This document shows, in pieces, positions 2,672-45,468 of a DNA stretch of 59,114 bases. Where the stretch lies: contig JBHHXL010000002.1 of assembly GCA_046757065.1 (NCBI GenBank), forward strand, positions 1 to 59,114, read 5' to 3'. Origin of the DNA: Anaerolineae bacterium. Lineage in GTDB: Bacteria > Chloroflexota > Anaerolineae > 4572-78 > JBHHXL01. Position 1 is the stretch's first letter. Each line of letters starts with the position of its first letter. Position numbers and translations under genes: made by a program. The notes under the pieces are model-generated. The model did no database searches. It was not told the origin of the DNA and saw only the letters and a program-made list of their open reading frames with translations.

Positions 2672-4402
2672 TTACTCCCAATTGAAGACGCTATCGAGGT
2701 CCTGGTCGCTGACATCGAAGACGAGGTTGAAGGGCGGCAGGGCCTCGGTCTTGAAAAACTCCGGCAGCCGGTCGTGGGCCGGGGTGAAGCCGGCTGCCCG
2801 ATTGAAGTCCCGTTCCATTTGCAGCACGTCGCAGCCCAATTGAGAAACGTAGTCAGCGGGAAACTCGCCGCCGGCGAGCGCCCGCAGCATCTCGACCACG
2901 ACCTCCATCTGAGGCGCGGTCGCGCCGGTCACGAAAGAGCATAGGCCCAGTGTATCCCAGGCCGCCGCCGTAATCTGCGCCCTGCGCGAAAGTTCGGCTT
3001 TGCCCTCCGGGCTGTGGTGATCGACCGGGAAATCAGCGGTATGCCCGGCCGTGTGGTCGGCGCCCATCGGCGAGGTGGCGTAGGTCACGCCCAGACCCTT
3101 GACCGCGCGCGGGTCGTAGGCGGCGATGCATTGGCCCTTGACCACGGGCGTGCGGGCCAGGCCGAAGACGCTCCCGGCGGTGGCCGCCCCGTGGCCGATC
3201 ACCCGGCCAGACACGCTGCCGCGCTCGATCTCGTCGAGCAAGCCGAATACGCCCTCGACGTCGCCGAAAGCGAGCTGCCCGGCGTCCATCGCCACACCGA
3301 TCGCGCCGCCTACATCTACCGCGTCGAGGCCCAGGTCGTTGCAGCGCCGGTTGAAGCGCGCCACCGCATCCAGCGAGCCAATGCCGAGATTTGGCCCCAG
3401 CATGACCATGCTTTCGTACTCGATGGGGGCCACGATGGCCCCCCCGCCGGCGTCCGGCACGACGTTGGAGCAGCGCAGGACGCAGCCGGACATGCAGGCG
3501 TGGGTCGTTTTGCCAGCGCCGCCACGCCGGCGGATCGTCTCGCGCACGGCCTGTCCATCCAGTTCAGACAGGTCCTCGAAAGCGCCGGCGCGGAAATTGC
3601 GGGTGGGCAGCCCGCCGAGTTTCTGCATCGGGGCGACCATGTAGGGGGTGCCGATCTCAGGAAAGACCGTTGAGGTGTAGTAATCCTCTCGCAGGCCGGT
3701 TGTGTAGCGCCGGATGGCCTGCTTCAGCGATTCCGGGTTGGCGGCCGGAGGCGCTTTTTTGGACGTCTCTTCGATGACGATGGCCTTCAGGCCCTTGCTG
3801 CCCATAACCGCGCCGAGGCCGCCACGAGCGGCCAGGCGTCCGGGGTTGCCGTCGCGGTCGGTCAGGGCGATGCCGGCGGCTTTCAGGCGCATCTCTCCGG
3901 CGGGGCCGAGAAGCACCAGCGTGTTCCTGGCCCCGAACCGCGCCAGGAGTTTTTCGGCCAGGGCGTAATTGCCAAGCCCCCGGTATTCGTCGGCCGGCAG
4001 AAACTCGCACCCCTCCGCGCCGATGCGGACCAGATAGAGGCGTTCGGGCTCAGGTTTCCCTTCGATGATGACGGCCCGCAATCCGAGCCTGACGAGGTTC
4101 CCGGCGGCATTACCGCCGGCGTTGCTTTCCTTGATGCCGCCGGTCAGGGGGCTTTTGGCCCCAATAGAAATCCGTCCGGCGCTGGACGCTTGCGCGCCGC
4201 GCGCGGCCAGCAGTCCCGGCGCGAGGATCAATTTATTGCTTCGGCCGAGCGGATCGCAGGCTGGCGGTACTTCCCGGTTGAGGATGGCCGCTGTCAGCCC
4301 CCGCCCGCCCCACCGCGCGTAATCCTCGGATAAGGGTTCCGGTTGCGCCGTCAGGCGCGCCATGTTCAGGCGTAACAGATGCACGGCATCACTATCGCTC
4401 AA
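2672..4402 (-). CDS. Aldehyde:ferredoxin oxidoreductase family (tungstopterin AOR), copy 1
   Basis: 576 aa with an AOR N-domain pattern (GGRGLTAAIL) and a C-domain with SPMGADHTAGH and the Cys-rich HACMSGCVLRC. Overlaps the upstream hydantoinase A gene by 11 nt. Confidence 0.85.
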   Translation of the reverse strand: MSDSDAVHLLRLNMARLTAQPEPLSEDYARWGGRGLTAAILNREVPPACDPLGRSNKLILAPGLLAARGAQASSAGRISIGAKSPLTGGIKESNAGGNAAGNLVRLGLRAVIIEGKPEPERLYLVRIGAEGCEFLPADEYRGLGNYALAEKLLARFGARNTLVLLGPAGEMRLKAAGIALTDRDGNPGRLAARGGLGAVMGSKGLKAIVIEETSKKAPPAANPESLKQAIRRYTTGLREDYYTSTVFPEIGTPYMVAPMQKLGGLPTRNFRAGAFEDLSELDGQAVRETIRRRGGAGKTTHACMSGCVLRCSNVVPDAGGGAIVAPIEYESMVMLGPNLGIGSLDAVARFNRRCNDLGLDAVDVGGAIGVAMDAGQLAFGDVEGVFGLLDEIERGSVSGRVIGHGAATAGSVFGLARTPVVKGQCIAAYDPRAVKGLGVTYATSPMGADHTAGHTADFPVDHHSPEGKAELSRRAQITAAAWDTLGLCSFVTGATAPQMEVVVEMLRALAGGEFPADYVSQLGCDVLQMERDFNRAAGFTPAHDRLPEFFKTEALPPFNLVFDVSDQDLDSVFNWE

Positions 4403-6461
4403 GGTTCAGGTTCCCAAATTCATCGACCGCGCCGCTCCAGCCTGGAATGACCACAATGGTGGTGGTCACTTCTTCAACGATGGCGGGGCCGGATAGTTGC
4501 GTGCCGGGCTGCGAGCGAAGTTTGGCTCCGTCGTACACGGATGTATCCGCAAAACCGCCGCATTCCTCGAAGTAAACCGGGCGTGTTCCCTTGAGAGCGA
4601 CGGATGGATCGGGGCCATTGCGAGGGAGTCGAGCAATCTCCGGCTTGGGTTTTTCGCCAACCGCCGTCAGACGAATGTTGATGGTTTCGATGTCCGCCTC
4701 CAGCTCGTGGTACATAAAGAGCCGTTGATGAGCCTCGTGGAAGCGGCGAGCGATCTCGGGGATGTCGTCCGGGGTCAGTCGATGTGACGGCACGCGAACG
4801 GTCACCTCGTGGTGCTGGCCCTCGTAACGCATATCCATATCGCACTCGAAGTGGATATTCTCAGGGGCGATCCCCTCGGCCAGCAGCGCCGCCCGGCCTT
4901 CTGACTTCAGCCGGTCAAACTCTGCGTTCAATCGCTCCAGGTCCAGTTTTGAAATGAAATCCCAGAAGGTGTAGACATAATCGTGCTTGAGGTCAGACTC
5001 GATCATCCCCAGCGCGCAAAAGACGGAAGCGGCCTGGGGGACGATGACGCGCGGCACGCCGACGGCCTGGGCCAGCCGCGCGGCGTGGGCCGGCCCGGCG
5101 CCGCCGGCCGCCAACAACGCAAACGAGCGAGGATCGTGGCCTTTCTGGATGCTCATCACTCGAATGGCATCGGCCATGCTGGCGTTGGTCAGCTTGTGGA
5201 TGCCGTAGGCTGCCGTGACCGTATCCAGGCCCAAGGGATCGGCGATATGCTTCTGCACTGCCTGTCGAGCGGCGTCTTTGTCCAGAACGATCTCGCCGCC
5301 CAGGAAGTAGTTCTCGTTAAGGTAGCCCAGCAACAGATTGGCATCGGTCACGGTCGGTTTATTCCCGCCCCGCCCGTAGCAGGCCGGACCGGGCAGCGCG
5401 CCGGCCGATTGGGGGCCGACCTGGAGCAGGCCGCCCCGGTCGAGATAGGCCAGACTGCCGCCGCCGGCGCCGATGGTGTGAATATCGATCACCGGCAGGG
5501 CCACGCGGTAGCCGCCGACCTCGCTCTCGGTCGTCATCTCGTAGCGGCCTTCGTTGATGAGGGTCACGTCGAAGCTGGTGCCGCCCATATCGACCACAAT
5601 GAAGTTCGGCGTGTCCAGGGTGCGCGCCAGAAACATGCCGCCGATGGCTCCTCCCGACGGGCCGGAGAGAACGGCGTTGACGGCGTGGTCGGAGCCGTAG
5701 GCGATGGTCATCACCCCGCCGTTGGATTGCATAACCAGGAACTCGTTCTGCAAGCCCTCGTCAGCTAGCGCGGCGCGCAGGCGTTCCAGGTAGCGGCGCA
5801 CCACCGGGCCTACATAGGCGTTGACGACGGTGGTCGAGGTGCGTTCGTACTCGCGCACCTGGCGCAGAATCGCCGACGAAATCGAAACATACGCCTGGGG
5901 AAACTCCTCGGCGATGAGTTCTGCCAGGCGGCGCTCGTGGGCGTCATTGACGTAAGAGAAGAGCAGGCACACGGCAATGGACTCGACGCCGCCGGCGCGC
6001 AGTTCGCGGATCACGCGCCGGGCGTCGTTTTCATCGAGCGGCGTAATGACCTGGCCGCGATAGTCCATCCGTTGCTCGACGCCCAGCCGCCGGTAGCGGG
6101 GAACGATCATCGGCGGGCGCTGCGGCGAGAGGTCCCAGATGTTAGGCTTGTAGCCGCGCCGCATTTCCAGCGAGTCGCGAAAGCCCCGGGTGGTGATCAG
6201 GCCGGTGGGGACGCCTTTGTGTTCAAGCATGGTGTTGGTGGCCACGGTGGTGCCCAGCACCAGCAGCTCGATCTGGCCCAGGAACTCCGCCGGCGGTAAA
6301 CCGTAATGGGCGGCTGCCTTGCCCAGGACGTTGAAAACCCCCACCGAGGGGTCCTCCGGGGTGGACAGGTCCTTGAAGATGTCAATCGCGCCGGCAGGCC
6401 CCACCACTGCGCCGTCCGTAAAAGTGCCGCCGATGTCGATGCCAACCCGGTAACCCATCAC
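4392..6461 (-). CDS. hyuA: Hydantoinase A / oxoprolinase / acetone-carboxylase-beta family (ATP-dependent)
   Basis: 689 aa with ASKHA-type motifs RVGIDIGGTFTD and VVDMGGTSFDV. Confidence 0.9.
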   Translation of the reverse strand: MMGYRVGIDIGGTFTDGAVVGPAGAIDIFKDLSTPEDPSVGVFNVLGKAAAHYGLPPAEFLGQIELLVLGTTVATNTMLEHKGVPTGLITTRGFRDSLEMRRGYKPNIWDLSPQRPPMIVPRYRRLGVEQRMDYRGQVITPLDENDARRVIRELRAGGVESIAVCLLFSYVNDAHERRLAELIAEEFPQAYVSISSAILRQVREYERTSTTVVNAYVGPVVRRYLERLRAALADEGLQNEFLVMQSNGGVMTIAYGSDHAVNAVLSGPSGGAIGGMFLARTLDTPNFIVVDMGGTSFDVTLINEGRYEMTTESEVGGYRVALPVIDIHTIGAGGGSLAYLDRGGLLQVGPQSAGALPGPACYGRGGNKPTVTDANLLLGYLNENYFLGGEIVLDKDAARQAVQKHIADPLGLDTVTAAYGIHKLTNASMADAIRVMSIQKGHDPRSFALLAAGGAGPAHAARLAQAVGVPRVIVPQAASVFCALGMIESDLKHDYVYTFWDFISKLDLERLNAEFDRLKSEGRAALLAEGIAPENIHFECDMDMRYEGQHHEVTVRVPSHRLTPDDIPEIARRFHEAHQRLFMYHELEADIETINIRLTAVGEKPKPEIARLPRNGPDPSVALKGTRPVYFEECGGFADTSVYDGAKLRSQPGTQLSGPAIVEEVTTTIVVIPGWSGAVDEFGNLNLER

Positions 6462-7462
6462 GGCTGCCCCATCAGCAAGGCCAGAATGCCTTTTTGGACG
6501 TGCAGGCGATTCTCGGCCTGGTCGAGGATGACCGAACGCGGCCCGTCGAGGACTTTGCTGGTTACCTCTTGATCGCGGGCAGCCGGCATACAGTGCATCA
6601 CATTCACATCAGGGCGGGCAAACGCCAGCAAATCATCATCGACGATCCACGATTTGTACTGGTCAGGGTCAAGAATATGGGGGGCCTTACCCTGCGGCGC
6701 TAACTCGTCGGTGTCTTTGAACTTATCCTTGAAAACTTGTGGCGAGGCCCAGCAATAGACGTTGATAATATCCGCGCCCTGGGCCGCCTCCTGCATATCG
6801 TGGACGATCTCGAGGCGCGCGCCGGAGAGGGCGGCCTCGGCCTGCGCCTTGTCCCAGATTTCCGGCTCCGGCTCGTAGCCCTCCGGGCAGGCCAGGACGA
6901 AGTGCGCCCCCAGGCGCGAGGCAATGTACAGGCTGGAATTCGGCAGGCCCATCGGCGGGCTGGCCGGTCGCCAGGCCCAGGTAAAGACATACTTCAGTTG
7001 TTTCACATCCCCCTTTTTCTCCTGAATGGTCATGAAATCGGCCAGCGCCTGGCAGGGGTGCCCCTCGGCGGTGGAAGCGTTGATGACCGGAATGTCAATC
7101 AGGTCTGCCGCCGCCTGCAACTCAGCCGAGGAGGCCACCCGGCCCACCAGGCCGTCGGCGAAGCGGCCCATCACGCCGACGGTGTCGGCCCATGTTTCGT
7201 TGGCCTTTGAGGCCCAGATACGATCGGGAAACAGGTATTGCGCGTGCCCGCCTAGTTGGGTCATAGCGGCTTCAAACGAGATGCTGGTCCGGGTGGAGGG
7301 CATGTTGAAGATCATCGCCAGCGTTTTGTTCTTGAGAATATCCGGGCGCTGGCCGCGCCTTGCCAACCGCTTGAGGTCCCAGGCGGTTTCCCATATCTGG
7401 AACAGGTCCTCGCGGGTGTAATCGTGCAGGGAAATAAGATCAGGGTGGCGGAAATTTGGCAT
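6458..7462 (-). CDS. Aspartate/ornithine carbamoyltransferase-family protein with non-canonical second-substrate site
   Basis: 334 aa. Motifs are STRTS (variant of STRTR), HPCQ and HCMP (HCLP). There is no DxxxSMG ornithine motif. Overlaps the downstream gene by 4 nt. Confidence 0.85.
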   Translation of the reverse strand: MPNFRHPDLISLHDYTREDLFQIWETAWDLKRLARRGQRPDILKNKTLAMIFNMPSTRTSISFEAAMTQLGGHAQYLFPDRIWASKANETWADTVGVMGRFADGLVGRVASSAELQAAADLIDIPVINASTAEGHPCQALADFMTIQEKKGDVKQLKYVFTWAWRPASPPMGLPNSSLYIASRLGAHFVLACPEGYEPEPEIWDKAQAEAALSGARLEIVHDMQEAAQGADIINVYCWASPQVFKDKFKDTDELAPQGKAPHILDPDQYKSWIVDDDLLAFARPDVNVMHCMPAARDQEVTSKVLDGPRSVILDQAENRLHVQKGILALLMGQP

Positions 7463-7538
7463 AGGTGTTATCTCCGTCTAAAAGTAACTATTCCCCCTTG
7501 AAAATAGCTGTCTACCGGTTGGGGGGTGGCCGGGCATT

Positions 7539-7590
7539 GTATTGAGGGCTTCAGCCCTTGCCAGGCTCAGAGGGCTAAAGCCCTCAATAC
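7539..7590. repeat. Hairpin repeat GTATTGAGGGCTTCAGCCC ... GGGCTAAAGCCCTCAATAC
   Basis: Two inverted copies of the motif also seen at 75-109. Lies between the opine-DH-like and carbamoyltransferase genes. Confidence 0.55.
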
Positions 7591-7606
7591 GGCCACGGTC
7601 GATTTG

Positions 7607-8728
7607 CTAATACCCTTCTTCCAGGTACGCTTTCAATCGTTCCTTGGACCAGGCCGGATCGATTCCCATCTTCTCCACGGTGCGGCCGAGCGCCCAGTAA
7701 TCCTCCTGGTTGAGGATCGAGGCCAGGGTGATGATGGCTTCGGAGGCGGGGGTAGGTACATTTAGCATCTGCCCCAGCGAGGCCCAGGTCACCAGGCCGT
7801 AGGGCACATCCTCGGTCAGGTGGCGGGCTTTGAGGCTGTAAGGGCCGGGAACCTGCTCCAGCTTCTCGGTGTGCATCGACTCGTACATGGGCAGGACGGT
7901 ATCTCCGGCGTGGCCGGGGTTGTACTTGTTGCGGGTGTGTTCCACCTCCAGGGGGACGGCTTCGATGTCGAGCGCCTGCGCCAGCGCCATCCGTTCGCGA
8001 TCAATGGCTTCGATGATGTTGCAGACCGCCGGCGGATTCTCGTCGCGGCCAAAAAGATGAAACTCCTCCTTGCGGTAACCCGAGTCGATGCGGGCGGCGT
8101 TGGCAATCATCGGCCCGGTGTGGGTGATGGCGTTAAAATCGAGCAGCACACTCTCGAACAGATTGGGCGCTCGCCGGAAATCGCGGGTGGGGAAGAGCGC
8201 TTGCAGCGCCTCCCGCACACGGTCGGTGTGCTTGCCCGGAAAGGCGGCGACGACGTTCTCTTGAATCACGCCAAAGACGGTGACCTCGGCCGGGCCTATT
8301 TTGCGGCAGCCGTGCAGGAGCGTGTTGGTCTCGCCTAACACAACATCTTTTTCAATGCCCAATTCCTTCAGAACTTGCGACCAGGCCACCGACCCGCCGC
8401 CTTTGCCCATCGTCACCACGATCTGCCCATCTTCCAGGTGCGGCGCGGCGACGCGGGCCAGCGTTCCATAAGCATAGGCCGGAACCGGGTTGAAGACAAC
8501 CTCTGCCCCGTGCAGCGCGGCAGCGATGTCGCTGGTGGCCAGGGCTACCGCTCCGAATCCCTCTTTCTCCACGCCGGAGATGCGGATCCCTCCCTGGGCG
8601 CTTACTTCGGCCAGGCCGCCGGCGTACACGGGAAGTTCATACAGGCGCACTTCGTGCCCTTCCAGACCCAGATGAGCCGCCATCGTCATGCCGCCGTTCC
8701 CAGCGCCCAAAATGGCAACTTTCGTCAT
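7607..8728 (-). CDS. NAD(P)-dependent opine (octopine/nopaline) dehydrogenase-family protein
   Basis: 373 aa. Rossmann N-terminus KVAILGAGNGGMTMAAHL and C-terminal RHLTEDVPYGLV...TP pattern. Overlaps the hyuB stop by 4 nt. Confidence 0.8.
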   Translation of the reverse strand: MTKVAILGAGNGGMTMAAHLGLEGHEVRLYELPVYAGGLAEVSAQGGIRISGVEKEGFGAVALATSDIAAALHGAEVVFNPVPAYAYGTLARVAAPHLEDGQIVVTMGKGGGSVAWSQVLKELGIEKDVVLGETNTLLHGCRKIGPAEVTVFGVIQENVVAAFPGKHTDRVREALQALFPTRDFRRAPNLFESVLLDFNAITHTGPMIANAARIDSGYRKEEFHLFGRDENPPAVCNIIEAIDRERMALAQALDIEAVPLEVEHTRNKYNPGHAGDTVLPMYESMHTEKLEQVPGPYSLKARHLTEDVPYGLVTWASLGQMLNVPTPASEAIITLASILNQEDYWALGRTVEKMGIDPAWSKERLKAYLEEGY

Positions 8729-10485
8729 TTTCGCCTCTCTGCTTCCCTTAATTTGCGCGTTGCTTCCTGGTCGACTTCCAGGTTCTCGGTCAACACCACG
8801 CCGTAATCGCGCTGGGCGCTCTCCCGTGAGACAAATTCATTGTGCACATCCTGGCGCACGAGTTCGGGATCGCGTTCCAGGGGGTCGCCCCAACCTCCGC
8901 CGCCGGAGGCGTACAGGGTGTAGGTGTCGCCATTGCCAAGCTCGAACAGGCCCTTGCTCGGCATCTCGATCTCGGATTCACGACCTTCGTTGATGAACGG
9001 GCGGTTGACGGATCCCGGCAGCCCGCCAAACAAGCCGTAGGGCGGGTTTTTTACGCCGTCTCCGTGCATCGAGGCCGAGACTTTGGGGGCCTGCCAGCGG
9101 AGCTTGTACTTCACGCCCAGCCCGCCGCGATACTTGCCGGGGCCGCCGGAATCGATCAGGAGTTCGTGCTCCAGGTTGAGCTGCGGGCATTGGATTTCCA
9201 TCGTTTCGATGTTGGGCGAGAGCAGGCCGCCCAGGTCGATGCCGTCGGAGGTAAAGCTGATGCCGTCGGCGTCGGGGTTGGCCCCGGCGCCGCCCATCCC
9301 GCAGAAGCAGAATTGGATGAAGAAACGGCCGTTGCGCGGGTCGATGCCGGTGAAAGTCGGACCGGCTTTGCGGTTCCAGCCGGCGGGGACTTTGTCGGGC
9401 ACGGCCTGGGCCAACGCCAGCCACATTGCTTCGAGGATGGCGCAGGCGGTGTCGAGCGTGGCGCTGGCGACCGGGGCGGGGGGCCGCGGATTGACCAGGC
9501 AGCCCTCCGGCGCGACCACTTTGATGGGCAGGTAAGCGCCCTCCGTACGCGGCACTTCCTGGCCGATCGTCGTCATAACGGCCACATAAACCGAGGTCGC
9601 CGAATTCGCCAGCGGGCTGTTGATCGGCCCGCGCGTCTGGGGGTGGGTGCCGCTGAAGTCGGCCGTCATCTCGTCGCCCTCAACCGTCAGAGTCACCTTG
9701 ATGTTCACCTCATGGGCGTCGAATCCGTCGTCGTCGAGGATGGCTTCCCCGACATAGACGCCGTCGGGCAGGGCAGAGATGGCGGTGCGCATCTGGCTCT
9801 CGGCGTATTCCTGGATGCCTTGCATCACGGCCTTCATCGTGTCGCGACCGTATTCAGATACCATACCCGTCAGGCGCGCCTCGGCTACATCGCAGGAGGC
9901 GATCTGGGCGCGGATGTCGCTCCAGAGCATCTCCGGCAAGCGGGTGTTGATCTTGACCAGCTCGACCACGTCTGGAATGGGGCGGTTGTCGCGACAGATG
10001 CGCAGCGGGGGGACGCGGATGCCCTCGTGGAAGATCTCCGTCGCCATCGGGCTGTAGCTGCCGGCCGTCATCCCGCCGACGTCCTCGTGATGGGCGCGGT
10101 TGATCGCCATAAAGAGCATCTCGTCGTCGACGAAGATCGGCTTGACCACGGTCAGGTCGGCCAGATGGGTGCCGCCGGTATAAGCGTCGTTGATCAGAAA
10201 AATGTCGCCGGGGCGGATGTCGCCGGCGAAGCGTTCGGTAATGGACTTGGCCGCAATCATCGAGGAAGCGGTGTGCGACGGAATACCGTCCACCTGCGCT
10301 ACAATGCGCGGCACCCAATCGCAGATGGCGCACGAAAAGTCATGCACCTCGGCAAAGATCTGCGAGCGGGATGTGCGCATCATCGTGATCCCCATCTCTT
10401 TGTTGATGTTCTGCAATCTATGGAAAACCACAGAAAATGTGACGGGATCGACGCCGTAAGCGCCGGATTCCATTGAAAGTGCCAT
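8725..10485 (-). CDS. hyuB: Hydantoinase B / oxoprolinase family
   Basis: 586 aa with family-typical N-terminus DPVTFSVVFHRL and C-terminal GGGGWGDPLERDPELV. Confidence 0.9.
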   Translation of the reverse strand: MALSMESGAYGVDPVTFSVVFHRLQNINKEMGITMMRTSRSQIFAEVHDFSCAICDWVPRIVAQVDGIPSHTASSMIAAKSITERFAGDIRPGDIFLINDAYTGGTHLADLTVVKPIFVDDEMLFMAINRAHHEDVGGMTAGSYSPMATEIFHEGIRVPPLRICRDNRPIPDVVELVKINTRLPEMLWSDIRAQIASCDVAEARLTGMVSEYGRDTMKAVMQGIQEYAESQMRTAISALPDGVYVGEAILDDDGFDAHEVNIKVTLTVEGDEMTADFSGTHPQTRGPINSPLANSATSVYVAVMTTIGQEVPRTEGAYLPIKVVAPEGCLVNPRPPAPVASATLDTACAILEAMWLALAQAVPDKVPAGWNRKAGPTFTGIDPRNGRFFIQFCFCGMGGAGANPDADGISFTSDGIDLGGLLSPNIETMEIQCPQLNLEHELLIDSGGPGKYRGGLGVKYKLRWQAPKVSASMHGDGVKNPPYGLFGGLPGSVNRPFINEGRESEIEMPSKGLFELGNGDTYTLYASGGGGWGDPLERDPELVRQDVHNEFVSRESAQRDYGVVLTENLEVDQEATRKLREAERRK

Positions 10486-10571
10486 AGGGGTGCTCTCGAT
10501 TATCTATAGAGTCCGAAGAGTCCGACAGTCCCTGCGGGGCGACACCGACAATGAAAACAGCGGAGGCGGCC

Positions 10572-10699
10572 GCTATTTTCAAGGGAGCGTGAAAATGTCA
10601 TTCCGAGCGCAGCGAAGGAATCTCCACCTTTGGGGCGCGGAGACTGCTTCGCCCTCTTCGGGGGCTCGCAGTGACATAACACGGCTATTTTCAAGGGAG
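10572..10699. repeat. 16-bp direct repeats GCTATTTTCAAGGGAG flanking a 96-bp palindromic insert
   Basis: The direct repeats are at 10572-10587 and 10684-10699. The insert contains GTCATTCCGAGCG...GGAATC, a core also present at 28.41 kb. A third copy of the direct-repeat motif lies at 7491-7506 in reverse orientation. Confidence 0.55.
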
Positions 10700-10736
10700 A
10701 TAGAAATTACGCAGTTGAATGTGTCACCGCAGAGAA

Positions 10737-11633
10737 TCATTCGTGAACGAGATGGAGTTCCCGCAAGACTTCGCGGATGTCGTTTTTCTCCGTTTCGGTT
10801 AACTCAGGTAAAGGGCGCCGCACTTTGCCACAGGCCAGACCCATCATATGCAGGGCCTCTTTAGCCGGCGCCACGTAACCCGGGTCATACTCCAGGAAAC
10901 GATTGAGGTTTTGAAGCCGGTTATGAAGAACTCGGGCCTCTTTGTAACGGCCCGCCATCGTGCTATTGTAAAGGTCCACCATCTGTTGGGGGCAGATGGT
11001 GGCCGCCGTTGAGAATATGCCGGTTGCACCGACGCACAGGGCCGCGTAGAATTGGCTGTCAATCCCGGTGCAGATCGAAATTTTCTCCCCGGCCAGACGG
11101 ATGACCTCGACCAGTTGCCCGAGATCATCCTGGCTTTGTTTAAGACCGATGATGTTCTCGACCTCTGCCAGGCGGGCGATCAAAGCTGGCGACAGATTAT
11201 TGCCGGTGTATAGCGGGTTGTTGTAAACGACAACGGGAAGGGGCGAATTCTTTGCCAGCTCGGTGTAGTGCAGGTACAAAGCCTCTTCGGGTAGAATGAA
11301 ATAGTATGGCGGCGTGACAATCGCCGCCGCCGCACCCACCGCCGCCGCGTCCTCGGTGAGCAAGATCGCTTCGAGCGTGCTGCAGGCAGCAGTCCCGGCA
11401 ATAATTGGCACTCGACCTTCGGTGGCCTCGACGACGATTTGCGTGACACGTTTTCGTTCCTCGCGCAGGAGGAGTGGAAACTCTCCGGTGCCTCCGGTGG
11501 TCATGATCGCGTGGACACCGTTTTCGACGACGTAATTGGTCACGGCGCGCAAAGCGGATTCATCTAATTGCTCATCGTCTCCGAGGGGAGTAATGATGGC
11601 GGGGATCACCCCATTGAGATCGTCTTTGTTCAT
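10737..11633 (-). CDS. Dihydrodipicolinate synthase / N-acetylneuraminate lyase family class I aldolase
   Basis: 298 aa with TTGGTGEFPLL and the Schiff-base lysine context IIGLKQS. Confidence 0.85.
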   Translation of the reverse strand: MNKDDLNGVIPAIITPLGDDEQLDESALRAVTNYVVENGVHAIMTTGGTGEFPLLLREERKRVTQIVVEATEGRVPIIAGTAACSTLEAILLTEDAAAVGAAAAIVTPPYYFILPEEALYLHYTELAKNSPLPVVVYNNPLYTGNNLSPALIARLAEVENIIGLKQSQDDLGQLVEVIRLAGEKISICTGIDSQFYAALCVGATGIFSTAATICPQQMVDLYNSTMAGRYKEARVLHNRLQNLNRFLEYDPGYVAPAKEALHMMGLACGKVRRPLPELTETEKNDIREVLRELHLVHE

Positions 11634-11667
11634 CGGGTGGCTCCTCCCTCCTTATCATAAGGGTGTT

Positions 11668-12366
11668 TTAAGGTGTTCCGTCCTCAAAATCTTCATCGTC
11701 GAGATTGGTGAGTACCAGTTCGCCCGCCTCAACGATATGATCAACAAGCGTTTTCTGCGCCAACTCAATGTCGCCTGCGCGCAGGGCTTCGATAATCGGG
11801 TAATGGGTGTCAACGACGTCGTGCGGGTTATCGTACAGTTGGTCCTTGATGGAAAAAAATAGGCGTAGTTGGGCAGACATGCGTAGCCAGGCGCGGATCA
11901 ACCGGCTGTTGTGGGAGCTATCGACGATACGCTCGTGAAAAGCATGATCCCATTCGACCAACTGGGATATATCGCGCTCTTCTGCTGCCTGGCGCATCTT
12001 ATTTACCAACGCCTCAAGTTCGTCGATTTCGGCCGGTGTCATATGGGGTAAAGCAAGTTTGACGGCCAGGCTTTCCAGGGCAGTGCGTAGGGTGTAAATC
12101 TCCTCGATGTCCTGGCGCTTCAGTTTGATAACAAACGAACCCTTACGCGGAATGCTGACGACAAAGCCCTCTTCCTCCAGCAACCGGATGGCTTCACGAA
12201 CAGGTGCCCTGCTGGTGCCCATTTGCTCAGCAATGGCGGTTTCTACCAAACGAGCGCCGGGTTTGAGCGCCCCGGCCTCGATCGCCTGCCGAATGTTGTT
12301 AACCACTTGTTCCCGCAGCGATTTGTCATCAACCTGTCTGAAAATTTGGCTTGATTCAAAGGTCAT
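11668..12366 (-). CDS. GntR-family transcriptional regulator (FadR/FCD subfamily)
   Basis: 232 aa. Winged HTH AIAEQMGTSRAPVREAIRLLEEEGFVVSIPRKGSFV followed by an all-helical FCD-like C-domain. Confidence 0.9.
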   Translation of the reverse strand: MTFESSQIFRQVDDKSLREQVVNNIRQAIEAGALKPGARLVETAIAEQMGTSRAPVREAIRLLEEEGFVVSIPRKGSFVIKLKRQDIEEIYTLRTALESLAVKLALPHMTPAEIDELEALVNKMRQAAEERDISQLVEWDHAFHERIVDSSHNSRLIRAWLRMSAQLRLFFSIKDQLYDNPHDVVDTHYPIIEALRAGDIELAQKTLVDHIVEAGELVLTNLDDEDFEDGTP

Positions 12367-15107: not shown

Positions 15108-15287
15108 ATGACCTCTGGCGAAATCATCGAGCGTTTGAAGGAGTTGCTGGCTGCCGTGCAAGAATTGGCTGCCCTGCGCGATCCTGCGCTTGAAGGAGAT
15201 ATACAAATCTTGCTCGCCGTTCTGGTGGACAAACTCCGCTACCTGGACCCGGCCGGCGACTATCCACACCAGGTGGAATACGAATGA
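15108..15287 (+). CDS. Small hypothetical protein (59 aa), translationally coupled
   Basis: AAGGAG lies 8 nt upstream of the ATG at 15108. The stop overlaps the next start (ATGA 15284-15287). No recognisable domain. Confidence 0.4.
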   Translation: MTSGEIIERLKELLAAVQELAALRDPALEGDIQILLAVLVDKLRYLDPAGDYPHQVEYE

Positions 15288-24616: not shown

Positions 24617-24741
24617 TCTAATCACCAATTGGACTCTGGCGAATCGAGGAGTGAGCACGCCTACGTGCGAACGGTCCCATGCGCGAAGCGTACGGCACGT
24701 GGGCATACCTTACTCCACAAGTAACGCTCGCGGAGGCGTTG

Positions 24742-32468: not shown

Positions 32469-32543
32469 GGAGATTAGAGATTAGAGATTAGAGATTGGAG
32501 ATTGCCTTCATTAAATAATCTCCTAATCTTCCTATCTCCAATC
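32469..32543. repeat. Heptamer-built long hairpin (GAGATTA x3 / AATCTCC)
   Basis: GGAGATTAGAGATTAGAGATTAGAGATTGGAGATT, a loop, then AATCTCCTAATCTTCCTATCTCCAATC. Lies between the two permease genes. Confidence 0.65.
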
Positions 32544-39317: not shown

Positions 39318-40787
39318 GTGGTTGGCAACGGTCCACTAAAGATTCTCGATGAAGGGCAAATTCACTCGATACACCAGACGGCGCTGGGCTTGCTGGAGAA
39401 GATCGGCGTCGTGGTCAAAGAGCCGCGCGCGTGGCGCTATTTTCGGGAGGCCGGCGCTGCGATTGACGAGGAGAACATGCGGGTGCGCATCCCGCCCGAC
39501 ATCGTCGAGGAGGCCATCAGGCTGGCGCCCAGTCGATTCACCGTACACGCCCGCGAACCGGATAATACCGTTGAAGTGGATTACCGACGGCTGCACATCG
39601 AGCCAATGATCGGGCGTCTCAATTTTCTCGATCCAGAGACGGGCGAGCGCCGCCGCACCAATATCACCGATGTGGGCAACCTGGTGCGCGTGGCCGATGC
39701 GATGGAGAATTACCATCTGCTGCACAGCGGGGCGATTATGCCCAGCATCGAGGGCGTTCCCTTGCACGCCGCGCACGCGCACGGTTACCTGGCCAGCGCG
39801 CGCAACACCGGAAAGGTCATCAAAGGCTCGGCGCGTGGCCGGGCAACGGCTGAGGATTGCATCCGTATGGCCGCCGTTGTGGCCGGCGGCGAAGATGCGC
39901 TCCGGCAGCGCCCGAACGTCTTCACCACCGTCAACCCGGTTGCGCCGCTGCAACACGATAAGGGCTTGACCGAAGGCTTGATCGAATATGCCTCTTACGG
40001 CCTGCCCATTGACGTCACCAGCGAACCGCAGGCGGGGGCGACCGCGCCCATCACCCTGGCCGGGTTGCTGGCCCAGCAGACCGCCGACGTGCTCAGCGGG
40101 ATCACGCTGGCCCAATTGGTCAACCCCGGCACGCCGGTCTGGTACGGAACCTGCGGCACGATTATGGATATGAAGCTGGGCGCAATTGCGCTGGGCGCGG
40201 TCGAGGCCGGGTTGATCAATGCGGCCTCGGCGCAGATGGCCGCCTTTTATCAGATTCCGTGCCGGGGCACCGGCGCAGCGACGGAGTCCAAGCTGCTCGA
40301 CATTCAGGCCGGCTACGAGAAGGCCATCACGCTCTTTATGGCCGCCCTGGGCGGCATCAATTGCCTCTTCTATCCGGGCGTGCTCGAACACGCGCTGACG
40401 ATCAGCCTGGAGGCGCTGGTGATCGACAATGAAATCTGCGGTATGGCCCTGCGCGCCCTACGCGGCATCGAGGTCAACGCCGACACGCTGGCCGTGCCGG
40501 TGATCGAAGCGGTAGGGCCGGGCGGCAATTTCCTGGGCCAGCGCCACACGATGAACTTCTTGCACCAGGAACAGTTCATGCCCAACTTTAGCAACCGGCA
40601 GACCCGCGAGGATTGGCTGGCAAAGGCAGGGGGCAAATCGGGCTGGGAGCGCGCCAAAGACGAAGTGCGGCGCATCCTGGCCGAGCACGAGCCGCCGCCG
40701 TTGGATGCCGGCGTCGAGGCCGAACTGGAGCGCATCGTGCGCGAAGTCGAGGCGCGCGGCCCGGAGCCAAAGAGGGTGTACGTATGA
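39318..40787 (+). CDS. MttB-superfamily methyltransferase, pyrrolysine-free (quaternary-amine:corrinoid methyltransferase-like)
   Basis: 489 aa, GTG start, no in-frame TAG. ILDEGQIHSIH..LLEKIGV, VAPLQHDKG, EPQAGATAPITLAG and GPGGNFLGQRHT are family-typical. Confidence 0.9.
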   Translation: MVGNGPLKILDEGQIHSIHQTALGLLEKIGVVVKEPRAWRYFREAGAAIDEENMRVRIPPDIVEEAIRLAPSRFTVHAREPDNTVEVDYRRLHIEPMIGRLNFLDPETGERRRTNITDVGNLVRVADAMENYHLLHSGAIMPSIEGVPLHAAHAHGYLASARNTGKVIKGSARGRATAEDCIRMAAVVAGGEDALRQRPNVFTTVNPVAPLQHDKGLTEGLIEYASYGLPIDVTSEPQAGATAPITLAGLLAQQTADVLSGITLAQLVNPGTPVWYGTCGTIMDMKLGAIALGAVEAGLINAASAQMAAFYQIPCRGTGAATESKLLDIQAGYEKAITLFMAALGGINCLFYPGVLEHALTISLEALVIDNEICGMALRALRGIEVNADTLAVPVIEAVGPGGNFLGQRHTMNFLHQEQFMPNFSNRQTREDWLAKAGGKSGWERAKDEVRRILAEHEPPPLDAGVEAELERIVREVEARGPEPKRVYV

Positions 40788-41797
40788 GCAAATCGCCGCT
40801 GGAGTTCCTTTATCTGGCCCAGGCGGACGTGCAGGCCGCCGGCCTTTCGATGGCCCTGGCCCTGAAAGCGGTCGAGGAAACATTCAAGCTCCACGCCCAG
40901 GGTAAAGTCAATATGCCCCACAAGACCGTGCTCGACCTGGGCGAGCGCGAGCGCGGGCGGGTCAATGCTATGCCGGCCTACGTCGGCGGCGATTTCGACG
41001 TGTGCGGCATCAAGTGGATCGCCGGCTTTCCCCAGAATCCCCTCAAGCACAATTTACCGCGCGGCATTGGCCTGCTGGTGCTCAACGACTCGTGGACCGG
41101 CGTGCCCCTGGCCATTATGGATGCGACGTCGATCAGCGCTATGCGCACCGGGGCAGCGACCGGCGTCGGCGCGAAGTACCTGGCTCGCCCGGATTCCGGG
41201 ATCGCGGCCCTGATTGGGGCGGGGGTGCAGGCGCGCACGCAACTTGAGGCCCTCCAGGCCACGTTGCCCAACCTGCGTCTGGCCCGCGCTTACGACGTGC
41301 GCGCCGAGACCGCGCAAGCCTTTGCATCCGAGATGAGCGCGCAGCTAGGGATCGATGTGCAGGCGGTGTCTACTCCGCAGGCAGCCGTCGAAGGCGCGGA
41401 CGTGATTGTGACGGCTACGGTGGCCGACGAGCCGATTGTGAAGGATGCCTGGGTAAAGCCGGGCAGCCTGTTTGTCCACGTCGGCTCCTACCAGGAGGAA
41501 GAGGAAGCGGTGGTCGAACATTCGGATATGCTCGTCGTTGACGACTGGCAGGCGGTCTTGCACCGGGAGACGCCGATTCTAGCCAGGATGTTCCTGGCCG
41601 GCCAGTTGCAGGAGGCGGACATCCACGCCGACCTGGGCCAGATCATCCTCGGCCAGAAACCCGGTCGCCGCTCGGAGGCTGAGCGCATTTTCTACGCCCC
41701 TATCGGCCTGGGCAGCGAAGACGTGGCCGTCGGTTATGAAATTTACCGGCTGGCGCAAGAGAAAGGTCTGGGCCAACGTCTGCGGCTTTTTGTTTAG
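40784..41797 (+). CDS. Ornithine cyclodeaminase / mu-crystallin-family NAD(P) enzyme
   Basis: 337 aa from the ATG at 40784 (ATGA overlap with the MttB-like stop). AMPAY..GIKW, SAMRTGAATGVGAKYLAR, LIGAGVQAR. Confidence 0.85.
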   Translation: MSKSPLEFLYLAQADVQAAGLSMALALKAVEETFKLHAQGKVNMPHKTVLDLGERERGRVNAMPAYVGGDFDVCGIKWIAGFPQNPLKHNLPRGIGLLVLNDSWTGVPLAIMDATSISAMRTGAATGVGAKYLARPDSGIAALIGAGVQARTQLEALQATLPNLRLARAYDVRAETAQAFASEMSAQLGIDVQAVSTPQAAVEGADVIVTATVADEPIVKDAWVKPGSLFVHVGSYQEEEEAVVEHSDMLVVDDWQAVLHRETPILARMFLAGQLQEADIHADLGQIILGQKPGRRSEAERIFYAPIGLGSEDVAVGYEIYRLAQEKGLGQRLRLFV

Positions 41798-41887
41798 GAG
41801 ATTGGGAGGTTGGGGGATTAGGGGATTAGGAGGTAGCCAGACCGGGGATTCGCTTCAATCTCCCAATCTCCCAATCCCCAGTCCCCA
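41797..41887. repeat. Heptamer-built long hairpin (GGGGATTA / CAATCTCC)
   Basis: GGAGATTGGGAGGTTGGGGGATTAGGGGATTAGG ... CTTCAATCTCCCAATCTCCCAATCCCC. Lies between the OCD-like and corrinoid genes. Confidence 0.65.
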
Positions 41888-41904: not shown

Positions 41905-42576
41905 ATGTCTGAACATGACGATATTATCGAACGAATGCAGGAGAGTATTTACGAAGCGGAAGAGGAAGAAGCCGCCGCCGCCGCCGCCGCTGCGTTGGAA
42001 GCGGGTATGGACCCCCTCGAAGCGCTTGAGCGGGGCTTCGCCGAGCCGATCCGTGAACAGGGGGAGGCGTTCAACCGGATGGAGATCTTCCTGCCCCAAC
42101 TCGTTCTGAGCGCCGGGGCTATGAAGGCCGGCCTCAAAGTGCTGGAGCCGGCCCTCAAAGCCGGCGACGACTACGAGGCGACCCGCAAAGGGACGGTCGT
42201 GATCGGCACCGTCGAAGGTGACATTCACGACATCGGCAAGACGGTCGTCATCGCTATGCTGCGCTCCGCCGGCTACGAAGTCCACGACCTGGGGGCCGAT
42301 GTGCCGATGCCCAATTTCCTGCAGGTGGCCGAACAGGTCAAGGCCGACATCATCGCCATGTCGGCCCTGCTTTCCACGACGATGCTGCGCCAGCGCGACC
42401 TGATCGAGTTGATGGAGCTGAAGGGCGTTCGCGACCGGTACTACGTCATTGTCGGCGGTGCGCCGGTGAACGAAGCCTGGGCCCGGGAGATCGGGGCCGA
42501 CGCTTTTGCGCTCGATGCTTTTGAGGCGGTGGAAGCGCTGAACGCGCGCCAGCGATTGGAGGGTTCTCATGCTTAA
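41905..42576 (+). CDS. Corrinoid (cobalamin-binding) protein, MtbC/MttC-like
   Basis: 223 aa, AGGAGA RBS. A helical cap domain followed by a Rossmann domain with the DxHxxG motif (EGDIHDIGK), SALLSTT and VGGAP. Confidence 0.9.
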   Translation: MSEHDDIIERMQESIYEAEEEEAAAAAAAALEAGMDPLEALERGFAEPIREQGEAFNRMEIFLPQLVLSAGAMKAGLKVLEPALKAGDDYEATRKGTVVIGTVEGDIHDIGKTVVIAMLRSAGYEVHDLGADVPMPNFLQVAEQVKADIIAMSALLSTTMLRQRDLIELMELKGVRDRYYVIVGGAPVNEAWAREIGADAFALDAFEAVEALNARQRLEGSHA

Positions 42577-43933
42577 TTACCTGGAGGCTATCAAGCGGGC
42601 CGAGATTGGGCCTATGTCAACGTCTGATGATTTCGCCATGCAGCTCATTGCCAGGAAGGTGCCGGAGCTGCAAAAGAAGTACGATATTCGTTACGATCCC
42701 AAGGTGCGCGTCAATACCGACGATGACCTGGCCGACCGCGTCTGGCAGGCCGGGCGCGAGTTGCTGCTGCACACGGGGCTGTTTAGCCTCAACAGCCGCC
42801 GCCGGATCGTGTTCGACGAGCGAGAGGTCGATGAGACGCTGGCGGCGGCGACCGCCGAGTTTGCCGCCGGCGAGGGCAAGGACGCGGCCCACGTCTACCG
42901 GCGCGACGTCGAAGACCCGCGCCCGCCGGTCATCTTTGGCGGGCCGTTCAACGCCGACGTCCACGAGAGCATGTTCGTCAAGCTCAATGAGGCCTTCGCC
43001 AGCGAGCCGCTGGTGGACCTGCTTCTGCTGCCGGGATACCTCAAGGAACTGGACGGGATCACCATCCGCCCCAATTCGGGGCTGTCGACGCGCGCCGCGA
43101 TGCTTTACGGCAGATGGTCGCGCGAGGCCATCGAGCGGGCCGGCCGGCCCGGGCTGCCGATTGTCGGGCACGCGGTGATGGCCCTCAACGAGATCGCCTG
43201 CACCAACGACGCCTGGGGCCTGCGCCGGACCGACCCGCGCGCCTACGCCATCATCTCCGAGCTGCAAGTGGACGACGTGACGCTGACCCGGCTGGCTTAC
43301 TACCATTCCATTGGCAGCCCGGTCTATATTTCGGCCACGCCGCTTATCGGCGGCTTCGGGGGCGGCCCGGACGGCACGGCCATCATCGGCGTGGCGGCGC
43401 ATATCGGCTCGGTCATGCTCGGCAGCCATGTTATGCACCTTGGGCCGCAACACATCCAACTCAGGCAACAGACGAATGCTATGTCGCTCTGGATGGGTAG
43501 CGTCGTCAAGCAAGCCGTGGCGCGCAACAGCAAGATGATCAACACTACCAGCGTGACGACGTCGGGGCGTCCGGGCTCGATGCAATATATTTACGAGTTC
43601 TCGGCCCTGGCGCTCTCGGTCGTGACCAGCGGTAGCAACCTGACCGGCCCCCGCCCGGCGGAGCCCCTCGGCTGGAACAACGTCAGCCCGCTGATGTGCC
43701 GGCTCTTCGCCGAAGTCGGTCGGGCCGCTACGAAACTTAGCCGCCAGGACGCGAATCGCATCGCCGACGCCCTGTTGGACAAATACAAGGACAAAATCCA
43801 GTTGAAGGACGCGCCCAAAGGTCTGCCGTTCGAGCAGATGTACGACGTAAATACGCTTCAACCCAACGCCGAGCACCGGGCGCTGTACGAGCAGGGACGG
43901 TCGGAGCTTAAGGAATTAGGGGTGCCGTTATAG
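42569..43933 (+). CDS. MtmB-family (monomethylamine methyltransferase-like) protein, pyrrolysine-free
   Basis: 454 aa, uninterrupted. The N-terminus (IKRAEIG..DDF..ELQKKYDIRYD...LADRVWQAGRELLLHTG), AGRPG and the C-terminus (FEQMYDVNTLQPN..YEQGRSELKELGV) are collinear with Methanosarcina MtmB as I recall it. Overlaps the corrinoid gene by 8 nt. Confidence 0.75.
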   Translation: MLNYLEAIKRAEIGPMSTSDDFAMQLIARKVPELQKKYDIRYDPKVRVNTDDDLADRVWQAGRELLLHTGLFSLNSRRRIVFDEREVDETLAAATAEFAAGEGKDAAHVYRRDVEDPRPPVIFGGPFNADVHESMFVKLNEAFASEPLVDLLLLPGYLKELDGITIRPNSGLSTRAAMLYGRWSREAIERAGRPGLPIVGHAVMALNEIACTNDAWGLRRTDPRAYAIISELQVDDVTLTRLAYYHSIGSPVYISATPLIGGFGGGPDGTAIIGVAAHIGSVMLGSHVMHLGPQHIQLRQQTNAMSLWMGSVVKQAVARNSKMINTTSVTTSGRPGSMQYIYEFSALALSVVTSGSNLTGPRPAEPLGWNNVSPLMCRLFAEVGRAATKLSRQDANRIADALLDKYKDKIQLKDAPKGLPFEQMYDVNTLQPNAEHRALYEQGRSELKELGVPL

Positions 43934-43941
43934 GCGATGCT

Positions 43942-44649
43942 ATGACCACATATGTGCTCTGTCACGGCGCTTTCACCGGCGGATGGATCTGGCGGGAGGT
44001 CGCAGCTCCGATAAGGGCTGCCGGCCATGAGGTCTATACGCCAACCTTCACCGGCGCGGGCGAGCGCGCTCACCTGGCCAATCCCGAGGTCGGCCTGGAC
44101 ACCCATATCCAGGACATCCTGATGGTATTCGAGTATGAGGATTTGCACGAGGTGATCCTGGTCGGTTACAGCTACAGCGGAGCCGTCGTTTCCGGAGTGG
44201 CCGAACGGGCCGCGGGCCGGATTGCCCATCTGGTCTATCTGGATGCATTTGTCCCGGAGAACGGCCAGTCTCAGGCGGACCTGGTCGGGCCGGAAGTGAT
44301 GGCGGGCATCCTTCAGGCCGCCCGGACCTCCGGCGATGGCTGGCGCATCCCCCACAATTACCACTCGCCCCATCCGCCCGCCCCCCGGCGCACGGACCTG
44401 TTGCTGAAGGCCGTCTTGCAGCCCGTTCGCCTTGGCGATCCGGCCGCTGCCCTGCCGCGCACGTTCATTCGCTGCACCGAGGGCCAGGCGGACCTGGGGC
44501 CGGTTGGCATCCCCATCGCGGAGGCGGCGCAGAAAGCCAGGAAAGACAGGCGCTGGCGGTATCGTGAATTGAAGACAGGGCATCATCCCTGGGAGACAGC
44601 GCCCCAGGAACTGGCCCACCTATTACTTGAGTTAGCACAGGAGAAATAG
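43942..44649 (+). CDS. Alpha/beta-hydrolase (SABP2/methylesterase-like)
   Basis: 235 aa. N-terminus YVLCHGAFTGGWIWREV and nucleophile elbow GYSYSG. Confidence 0.8.
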   Translation: MTTYVLCHGAFTGGWIWREVAAPIRAAGHEVYTPTFTGAGERAHLANPEVGLDTHIQDILMVFEYEDLHEVILVGYSYSGAVVSGVAERAAGRIAHLVYLDAFVPENGQSQADLVGPEVMAGILQAARTSGDGWRIPHNYHSPHPPAPRRTDLLLKAVLQPVRLGDPAAALPRTFIRCTEGQADLGPVGIPIAEAAQKARKDRRWRYRELKTGHHPWETAPQELAHLLLELAQEK

Positions 44650-44655
44650 ACAAAG

Positions 44656-45024
44656 ATGAGCGAGAAACCAGATTCAGATCAACTTGTTGGCCGGGGCAGG
44701 AAAGAGGGCGCCAGGCTTTTTCGGGAGTGGTTCGACGACCTGGCTCACGCCGGCGAACGCGGTGAACAGGCCGCTTACGTTTTTGTGATGGGCAGCATGG
44801 CCGAGATTTTGCGCACATTTGATTCGATCAAGAGTTGCCGGACGACATCCACCGGCCTGGCCGACAGCCGGCGGTTCTTTATGAAGGACCGGGACCTGCC
44901 GAGTTTGTATATTGAGTCGGACATGATGGACAAGCGAGTGGTATCCGAGGCGCAATTAAAGAACCGGATCGATGCGTTTTTCGAGGGGCTGTCCGCCCGC
45001 AAACAACAGGCCGCCGTCAGCTAA
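44656..45024 (+). pseudogene. Internally collapsed remnant of a 2-hydroxyacyl-CoA dehydratase / BcrC-HgdB-family gene
   Basis: 122 aa. An N-terminal-like piece (LFREWFDDLAHAGERGEQAAYVFVMGSMAEILRTFD) is fused to a C-terminal-like piece (LPSLYIESDMMDKRVVSEAQLKNRIDAFFEGL). Full-length members are about 3 times longer. Confidence 0.45.
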
Positions 45025-45337: not shown

Positions 45338-45468
45338 CTGAGATTTTCGTCATGCGCCGGCGCTGCCGGGACATATGCTCTTGGTTAAGTATAGGCGTCT
45401 TTGGGCGGCTGTCGAGTGTAGGGCCCGTCGTCCTGATAAACCAGCATTCTACCGATGAGGAAATCCCC

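Follow-up and report, generated by a model that had tools for sequence, protein, structure and literature searches.

A pyrrolysine-free MtmB homologue and its conserved corrinoid-protein cassette in uncultured anaerobes

A further member of the MtmB family

MtmB of Methanosarcina barkeri carries pyrrolysine (Pyl) at position 202, and hundreds of sequence clusters of MtmB homologues lack this residue, one of them with an assigned function. That one is MtqB of Methanococcoides methylutens Q3c, a tetramethylammonium/choline:corrinoid methyltransferase with trace activity on monomethylamine (MMA), which was published in March 2026 and is encoded beside its corrinoid protein, MtqC (PMC13044021). 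Among bacteria, Ga0180325_111810 of ‘Ca. Formimonas warabiya’ DCMF is a non-Pyl protein of the MtmB superfamily that is strongly induced on dichloromethane (PMC9768040). Here, we describe a Pyl-free MtmB homologue from an Anaerolineae bacterium (Chloroflexota), encoded at 42569..43933 (+) of a 59,114-nt stretch of DNA (contig JBHHXL010000002.1 of assembly GCA_046757065.1; hereafter the window). Its gene is part of a cassette that also encodes a corrinoid protein, a Pyl-free homologue of MttB and an NAD(P) enzyme of the OCD/mu-crystallin family. Non-Pyl MtmB homologues as a class are already known; the cassette as a context for one of them appears to be new.

Is the gene a genuine member of the family? 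The Pfam model of MtmB (PF05369) matches the 454-aa open reading frame (ORF), which ends in TAG, with 271.1 bits (cut-off 25; E 2e-80), spanning residues 5-451 of the protein and positions 4-449 of the 450 in the profile. Compared with M. barkeri MtmB itself (1L2Q/1NTH), phmmer aligns residues 9-452 at E 1.7e-53 and BLASTP returns E 4e-61 at 28% identity. An AlphaFold2 (AF2) model built with 47 homologues as input (pLDDT 90.1, pTM 0.92) is predicted to adopt the MtmB-type TIM-barrel fold: Foldseek superposes it on 1NTH, 1L2Q and 1TV2 with a TM score of 0.94 and an rmsd of 1.9 Å over 455 columns, and the runner-up fold, that of MttB, reaches only 0.52. A preliminary description of this locus, drawn from the letters alone, had proposed just such a comparison with the crystal structures and had left room for a protein only distantly related to MtmB through its barrel. 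Since the similarity is full-length, far above chance and so much closer in fold to MtmB than to MttB, a distant TIM-barrel resemblance is not what we see, and sequence and modelled fold agree in placing the gene within the family.

Within that family, the protein and its close relatives appear to form a clade of their own, judged by sequence, because the nearest other 50%-identity clusters stand at no more than 45% identity and no NCBIfam model matches the window protein. Identity of the clade to MtmB is 27-28%. Among its 120 closest homologues (59-88% identical, all of ~454 aa), 153 of the 454 positions are conserved at 97% or more, from which we conclude that the protein is under strong purifying selection. 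About 60 of these 153 positions are specific to the clade, many of them at or just past the barrel strands; the residues that are conserved family-wide, in MtmB itself included, are kept in the window protein. Both NCBI and JGI label such homologues ‘monomethylamine:corrinoid methyltransferase’.

The position of interest lies in a segment containing the motif ERAGRPGLPIVGHAV. Residues 186-203 of the protein read EAIERAGRPGLPIVGHAV, with residue 199 being a valine encoded by GTC at 43163..43165 (+), and in the Protein Data Bank (PDB) entries 1L2Q and 1NTH, M. barkeri MtmB has the sequence AGRPGMGV-X-GPETS, X being the pyrrolysine at 202. The preliminary description had aligned Val199 with Pyl202. 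Four of five alignments now agree with it, namely phmmer, BLASTP, MAFFT L-INS-i on 130 family sequences and hhalign of the profile of the window clade against an MtmB-like profile (probability 100%, E 3.7e-73), with the identical AGRPG just upstream serving as an anchor. The same four place G200 opposite G203 and open a two-residue gap after H201. A displaced Pyl column, which would have undone the proposal, is seen in the fifth alignment alone, a 13-sequence MAFFT run in which the gap has slid and Val199 falls two columns later. As the clade has two residues fewer in the loop that follows the strand and the position of the gap is not unique, the equivalence of Val199 and Pyl202 is to be taken as the best available rather than absolute; it draws on sequence and profile alignments together with the strand register of the AF2 model, where residues 198-199 are predicted to lie within a barrel strand.

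This protein is not a Pyl-dependent MtmB, because the codon is GTC and the ORF from 42569 to 43933 holds no in-frame stop, hence no UAG to be read as Pyl at the position of Pyl202. Nor does Rfam find a PYLIS element within 42569-43933, even at E <= 1. The genes of the OCD homologue (41795-41797) and of the MtmB homologue (43931-43933) both stop at TAG, a weak sign that UAG is not routinely decoded as pyrrolysine in the host.

The preliminary description had further treated valine as a substitute for Pyl and called for a survey of the column. Valine is indeed there, but a defined functional replacement is not: within the clade, the column holds Cys in 66, Val in 29, Thr in 14, Ala in 8 and Ile in 3 of the 120 homologues. 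Variation is wider still across the family. When 1.84 billion cluster representatives were searched exhaustively, 855 clusters matched at E <= 0.001, and the 129 full-length representatives read out at this column show L (21), V (14), I (13), G (12), S (9), C (8), A (7), T (6) and others. Valine hence looks unremarkable, and Val199 would only fill, as one of several small residues, the strand position taken by Pyl in MtmB. Specificity more probably resides in the shortened G-H-A-V-M loop, which does not vary within the clade, together with other clade-specific residues at the barrel ends. This loop is part of a clade-specific stretch around the Pyl column, P-G-[LM]-P-I-x-G-H-A-V-M (43154..43180, +), in which G200 and M204 are invariant and H201 is found in 119 of 120 homologues; model confidence here is lower (mean pLDDT 63 over residues 201-210). 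The preceding A191-G-R-P-G195 motif is common to MtmB and most of the family. One protein stood out during the survey: P0309, a 462-aa protein from a Methanomassiliicoccaceae metagenome-assembled genome (MAG) that is 47% identical to M. barkeri MtmB, has Lys at the Pyl column (RAGRPGMGIKGPDTPL), which may reflect a genuine substitution or the use of K for pyrrolysine in the source.

A four-gene cassette and its surroundings

Directly upstream of the MtmB homologue, at 41905..42576 (+), lies a gene for a corrinoid protein with B12-binding_2 and B12-binding domains (Pfam). Its stop overlaps the start of the MtmB-homologue gene by 8 nt, and the two are translationally coupled. The protein contains the DxHxxG motif (D-I-H-D-I-G, 42220..42237, +), the cobalamin lower-ligand motif of B12-binding domains. 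An adjacent corrinoid protein with these features is what one expects of a corrinoid-dependent system headed by a substrate:corrinoid methyltransferase (MT1). Among NCBIfam models, pyl_corrinoid (211 bits) and MtgC (200 bits) both score below their cut-offs.

The cassette opens with a Pyl-free homologue of the MttB superfamily (39318..40787, +; 489 aa; PF06253, E 8.6e-119), whose closest solved structure is MtgB (9YCE/2QNE; E 8e-97). At the column of MttB Pyl334, as placed by phmmer against 7XCL and by the alignment to Rfam PYLIS_3, it has Ala321 (GCG, 40278..40280, +); among 27 cassette orthologues, this column is Ala in 23, Val in 2 and Thr in 2. MtgB binds glycine betaine through Y97, R312, H348 and F356, and the carboxylate-binding Arg is conserved in all characterised non-Pyl MttB members with acidic substrates (PMC13080624). 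The corresponding residues in the window protein are I98, R316, Y352 and A359. Only the Arg is retained, and Ile and Ala take the places of the two aromatics that form cation-pi contacts in MtgB. I98, R316 and Y352 are invariant in the 27 orthologues, and position 359 is Ala in 25 and Gly in 2. We considered glycine betaine as the substrate of the MttB homologue and rejected it, given that three of the four binding residues of MtgB have given way to others in every one of these orthologues or in all except two of them. Rfam also reports a PYLIS_3 match inside this gene (40278-40377, +; 43.6 bits against a gathering threshold of 38) that lays the UAG of the model on the GCG of Ala321. A functional recoding signal seems an inapt explanation for it: apart from the missing UAG, the consensus is mostly unpaired, with few pairs, several of them non-canonical, and the match reflects coding homology.

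Next comes the OCD/mu-crystallin-family NAD(P) enzyme (40784..41797, +; PF02423, E 1.7e-73), whose gene ends in TAG and whose start overlaps the stop of the MttB-homologue gene (ATGA). Its closest solved structures are the Pyr2C reductase 6T3E, the archaeal alanine dehydrogenase 1OMO and SbnB (4M54), and it reaches no NCBIfam cut-off. Between this gene and that of the corrinoid protein, at 41797-41885 (+), sits a long hairpin of GGGAGATTG-type repeats (dG -50.5 kcal/mol, z -4.05), a partial copy of which occurs at 32516-32532. A conserved regulatory element of the cassette was considered here and discarded, as the closest relatives (loci L003-L005) have spacers of 25-51 nt with no such hairpin; it may be a small palindromic repeat element.

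How general is this arrangement? A scan for orthologues, with one genome per species, yielded 42 loci, all of them in MAGs; the counts that follow refer to the 36 loci in species-representative genomes with enough flanking sequence to judge. Lineage labels cover Anaerolineae/Chloroflexota, Spirochaetota, Thermotogae, Bipolaricaulota, Coprothermobacterota, Caldisericota and Atribacteria, and one contig is labelled archaeal, its MtmB-homologue gene being cut by the contig edge. In 33/36 loci, the MtmB homologue has the corrinoid protein as its direct neighbour; the MttB homologue is present in 33 and the OCD homologue in 31, and all three partners lie on the same strand in 31. Outside the subclade of the window, they are 54-66% identical to the window's own partners, similar to the MtmB homologue itself. 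Two gene orders occur, either MttB homologue, OCD homologue, corrinoid protein and MtmB homologue, as in the window, or corrinoid protein, MtmB homologue, MttB homologue and OCD homologue. The stable units are therefore the pair of MttB and OCD homologues and the pair of corrinoid protein and MtmB homologue. One clear solo copy was seen among the 36 loci, in a Spirochaetota genome (L034, 8001-9359): this clade member has the window's GRPGLPIVGHAVMALN motif, and no MttB, OCD or corrinoid gene lies within 8 kb on either side. Our literature search returned no description of the cassette, nor of corrinoid methyltransferases for sarcosine or N-methylproline, and the fixed pairing of a non-Pyl MttB homologue, one corrinoid protein, an OCD enzyme and an MtmB homologue across uncultured anaerobes appears to be undescribed.

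Beyond the four genes, the most frequent companions are a ferredoxin and an aldehyde:ferredoxin oxidoreductase (AFOR), the latter lying within 6 kb of the cassette in 16/36 loci (45-51% identity). Also recurrent are an OTC-like carbamoyltransferase, the A and B subunits of an ATP-dependent hydantoinase/lactamase, an opine dehydrogenase, a GntR-FCD regulator, a DPD-like Fe-S flavoprotein, a COG0402-type amidohydrolase and XDH-family subunits. In Bipolaricaulota, Thermotogae and Atribacteria, these families and the cassette form one same-strand block, and in Anaerolineae loci they follow the cassette. The window holds them 30-40 kb away: a 4Fe-4S ferredoxin (24679-25191, +) paired with an AFOR (25178-27025, +), homologues of which sit directly after the cassette in relatives; XDH-family subunits (15284-19070, +); and, at 2672..12366 (-), a run identified by Pfam and NCBIfam that comprises an AFOR, hydantoinase/lactamase A, the OTC-like carbamoyltransferase, the opine dehydrogenase, hydantoinase/lactamase B, a DHDPS-family protein and a GntR-FCD regulator. 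The hydantoinase/lactamase subunits match caprolactamase best among NCBIfam models, under the cut-off, and the carbamoyltransferase reaches none of the curated cut-offs for ornithine and putrescine. Attempts to narrow down the substrate through the OCD homologue, the carbamoyltransferase, the AFOR and the amidohydrolase (PDB, NCBIfam) failed, as the matches stayed below equivalog cut-offs or fitted several activities equally well.

In three Spirochaete loci, the gene directly upstream of the cassette is a formate-tetrahydrofolate ligase, read from translations in two of them (L015, 2818-4596; L016, 2808-4643) and a candidate judged by ORF size alone, 611 aa, in the third (L018). This adjacency hints that methyl groups enter folate-dependent one-carbon (C1) metabolism.

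Immediately downstream of the MtmB homologue, the window encodes an alpha/beta-hydrolase (43942..44649, +; Pfam) that recurs in L001/L004 (one and the same contig; 69% identity) and is absent from the other loci. Since it is conserved in the closest relative only, we count it as an uncertain member of the system. Behind it lies a 122-aa remnant (44656-45024, +) of a 2-hydroxyglutaryl-CoA-dehydratase D-component-like gene, of which only N- and C-terminal parts are left and whose counterpart at the same place in L001 has 431 aa. A type I restriction-modification hsdM gene comes after the remnant (45352-46779, +), where synteny with L001 ends.

Possible substrates and alternative readings

What could such a cassette do? 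We favour, with a probability of about 0.5, a Pyl-free, corrinoid-dependent N-demethylase that acts on a carboxylate-bearing, self-cationic N-methyl amine in tandem with the MttB homologue. The MtmB homologue would work as an MT1, taking a methyl group from its substrate and loading it on the upstream-encoded corrinoid protein in its Co(I) state. This substrate would probably not be free MMA; an N-methyl amine that is cationic at neutral pH and brings its own carboxylate handle would need no covalent Pyl adduct. Sharing one corrinoid protein, the MttB and MtmB homologues could remove two methyl groups in succession, with dimethylglycine to sarcosine to glycine, or proline betaine and N-methylproline to proline, as candidate routes. 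The OCD/mu-crystallin-family dehydrogenase would then take up the demethylated amino acid, and the ferredoxin-linked AFOR the resulting aldehyde or oxo-acid. The methyl groups would presumably reach C1 metabolism on tetrahydrofolate (THF) through a second methyltransferase encoded elsewhere. An acidic substrate is suggested by the invariable partners, i.e., an MttB homologue with the carboxylate Arg and an amino-acid-type dehydrogenase.

Any single substrate is much less probable than this general reading. Of the two routes, the one through dimethylglycine and sarcosine is a tentative first choice. Protonated sarcosine can be regarded as an analogue of the adduct of MMA with Pyl and dimethylglycine as that of the dimethylamine adduct, following the logic of a substrate that mimics the Pyl adduct as used for MtgB and MtqB. 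Hydantoinase action followed by decarbamoylation is the route from creatinine and N-methylhydantoin to sarcosine, and the hydantoinase and carbamoyltransferase near the cassette might likewise release sarcosine from N-methylhydantoin or creatinine. Glycine-betaine demethylators excrete dimethylglycine. Its anaerobic fate has been stated to be unknown (PMC4993014). N-methylated prolines are the less probable choice; the proline betaine route would be economical, as it would take off just two methyl groups, and Pyr2C reductase is the nearest structurally solved relative of the OCD homologue.

Several observations weigh against such an N-demethylase. Neither the 59-kb window nor the recurrent neighbours include a methylcorrinoid:THF/coenzyme M (CoM) methyltransferase (MT2) or a RamA-type activator, both of which may be encoded elsewhere in the genome. 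The XDH-family subunits, COG0402-type deaminase, DPD-like Fe-S flavoprotein and BMP-type binding protein near the cassette resemble anaerobic purine or N-heterocycle catabolism, and the N-methyl compound may derive from a methylated heterocycle. Clade members are known from MAGs alone. The role of the OCD homologue is generic: Pyr2C reductase, alanine dehydrogenase and SbnB score alike. In three further clades of non-Pyl MtmB, which share 37-45% identity with the window protein, the gene sits directly beside AFOR with no corrinoid protein nearby (L045, 5178-8407; L046, 538-5942; and the JGI contig carrying P0121), so that the family may include chemistry outside the methyltransferase paradigm. 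One of these three genes is flanked by two AFORs, and one of the contigs carries a Sec61-beta gene, suggesting archaeal origin. Finally, MtqB, the only characterised non-Pyl MtmB, uses quaternary amines and not amino acids (PMC13044021).

This last point leads to the reading favoured by the preliminary description, in which the loss of Pyl signals a substrate that needs no adduct, in parallel to Pyl-free MttB enzymes. The general idea—no Pyl, hence a different and probably pre-charged substrate—is in line with the published work on MtqB, and is not new in itself; a quaternary amine, however, is not indicated here. The window gene has the same adjacency to a corrinoid protein as MtqB, which methylates its neighbour from tetramethylammonium (QMA) and choline, and nearby Fe-ADH and AFOR genes could oxidise an amino-alcohol such as choline. 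Yet the clade is remote from MtmB and from every other cluster, MtqB is reported from methanogens and near the Pyl-MtmB branch, and the partners—a carboxylate-Arg MttB homologue and an amino-acid-type dehydrogenase—suggest an acidic substrate. Because the MttB partner lacks both quaternary-nitrogen aromatics and has the carboxylate-binding Arg, a quaternary amine is not established, and to judge from sequence an acidic secondary or tertiary N-methyl amine is at least as likely. We therefore consider an MtqB-like methyltransferase of tetramethylammonium, choline or a related non-acidic quaternary amine rather improbable. Doubts are graver where MMA itself is concerned. Public databases do name the homologues monomethylamine:corrinoid methyltransferases, and MtqB has its trace of MMA activity; these names are homology transfers, though, MMA activation by MtmB is considered to depend on Pyl, and the clade combines a variable, aliphatic Pyl column with a remodelled loop and no matching NCBIfam model. 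A true MMA:corrinoid methyltransferase that has dispensed with Pyl is accordingly very unlikely.

Two further readings concern the direction or the very existence of methyl transfer. Given that the cassette of 31/36 loci, 13-gene same-strand blocks included, combines two methyltransferases of the substrate type with a single corrinoid protein and has no MT2, and that neither MT2 nor RamA occurs in the window, one MT1-type protein might load the corrinoid from an N-methyl donor and the other unload methyl-Co(III) onto an amine acceptor, thereby replacing MT2. The absence of MT2 is weak evidence, however, as MT2 is shared and encoded apart from the MT1 genes in Eubacterium limosum and methanogens. 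MtbA provides a methanogen example in the work on MtqB (PMC13044021). The formate-THF ligase beside the cassette in Spirochaete loci suggests a folate route. Also to be held against transmethylation, we know of no MtmB or MttB member that runs in the unloading direction physiologically, which leaves it a long shot. Even less can be said for a TIM-barrel enzyme that would partner AFOR in aldehyde or amine metabolism and transfer no methyl group at all. The three neighbouring AFOR-linked clades and the AFOR that follows the cassette in 16/36 loci would fit such a role, but the corrinoid protein is adjacent in 33/36 loci, its gene overlaps the start of the MtmB homologue, and the family-conserved residues shared with MtmB itself are kept. 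We regard this as highly improbable.

A more radical scheme is a Pyl-independent route for methyl groups on simple or amino-acid-bound amines, with a small molecule standing in for pyrrolysine. Methylamine or dimethylamine may be joined reductively to a 2-oxo acid (e.g., glyoxylate or pyruvate) by an enzyme of the OCD or opine-dehydrogenase type. The resulting sarcosine or N-methylalanine may then lose its methyl group to the shared corrinoid protein through the MttB and MtmB homologues, and re-oxidation of the amino acid may regenerate the oxo-acid carrier. We deem this carrier cycle speculative and unlikely. In a less radical form, the cassette may account for the missing full anaerobic demethylation of dimethylglycine and sarcosine, creatinine-derived sarcosine included, in uncultured sediment bacteria.

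Comparison with known systems

The enzymes of anaerobic demethylation beyond the first methyl group are an acknowledged gap, and the fixed partnership described here offers a concrete, testable candidate for stepwise N-demethylation past that point. Members of the clade occur widely among uncultured anaerobes (Anaerolineae, Spirochaetota, Bipolaricaulota, Atribacteria, Thermotogae and others), and ‘monomethylamine methyltransferase’ labels in metagenomes should not be read as evidence of methylamine use.

How does the window protein relate to what has been characterised? With MtmB of M. barkeri (1L2Q, 1NTH, 1TV2), it shares the Pfam family over its full length, the predicted fold, the AGRPG before the Pyl strand and the adjacent corrinoid gene. 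It differs in having GTC/Val where MtmB has UAG/Pyl202, in its low identity (27-28%), and in a two-residue-shorter GHAVM in place of the GPETSLS loop. Moreover, the gene is bacterial, lies in a cassette with MttB and OCD homologues and has no PYLIS match. MtqB is reminiscent of the window protein as a Pyl-free MtmB-family protein encoded next to its corrinoid protein, and it establishes that proteins of this kind can be active as MT1 on non-MMA amines (PMC13044021). A pocket of conserved Met, Cys and aromatic residues marks the MtqB branch. Going by description rather than by sequence, MtqB differs in that it belongs to a methanogen, works with MtbA and CoM and branches near the Pyl-MtmBs, and no MttB or OCD partner is mentioned beside mtqBC (PMC13044021). 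A homologue search started from the representative closest to MtmB returned proteins of Methanomassiliicoccales, Asgard archaea and Anaerolineae, with no Methanococcoides entry among them.

Among the non-Pyl MttB enzymes, MtgB, MtpB, MtcB, MtyB and MthB provide the evolutionary parallel: Pyl-free members of a Pyl family that pass methyl groups from larger, charged and acidic N-methyl compounds to a corrinoid protein, one such homologue being the direct neighbour of the window gene. They belong to a different family with a loosely related barrel (Foldseek TM about 0.5), and the neighbour lacks the aromatic pair of MtgB. Ga0180325_111810 of strain DCMF, like the window protein, is bacterial, Pyl-free, of the MtmB family and proposed to act on a non-MMA substrate (PMC9768040). 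By its description, it differs in being induced by dichloromethane and in having no cassette of this type reported around it (PMC9768040).

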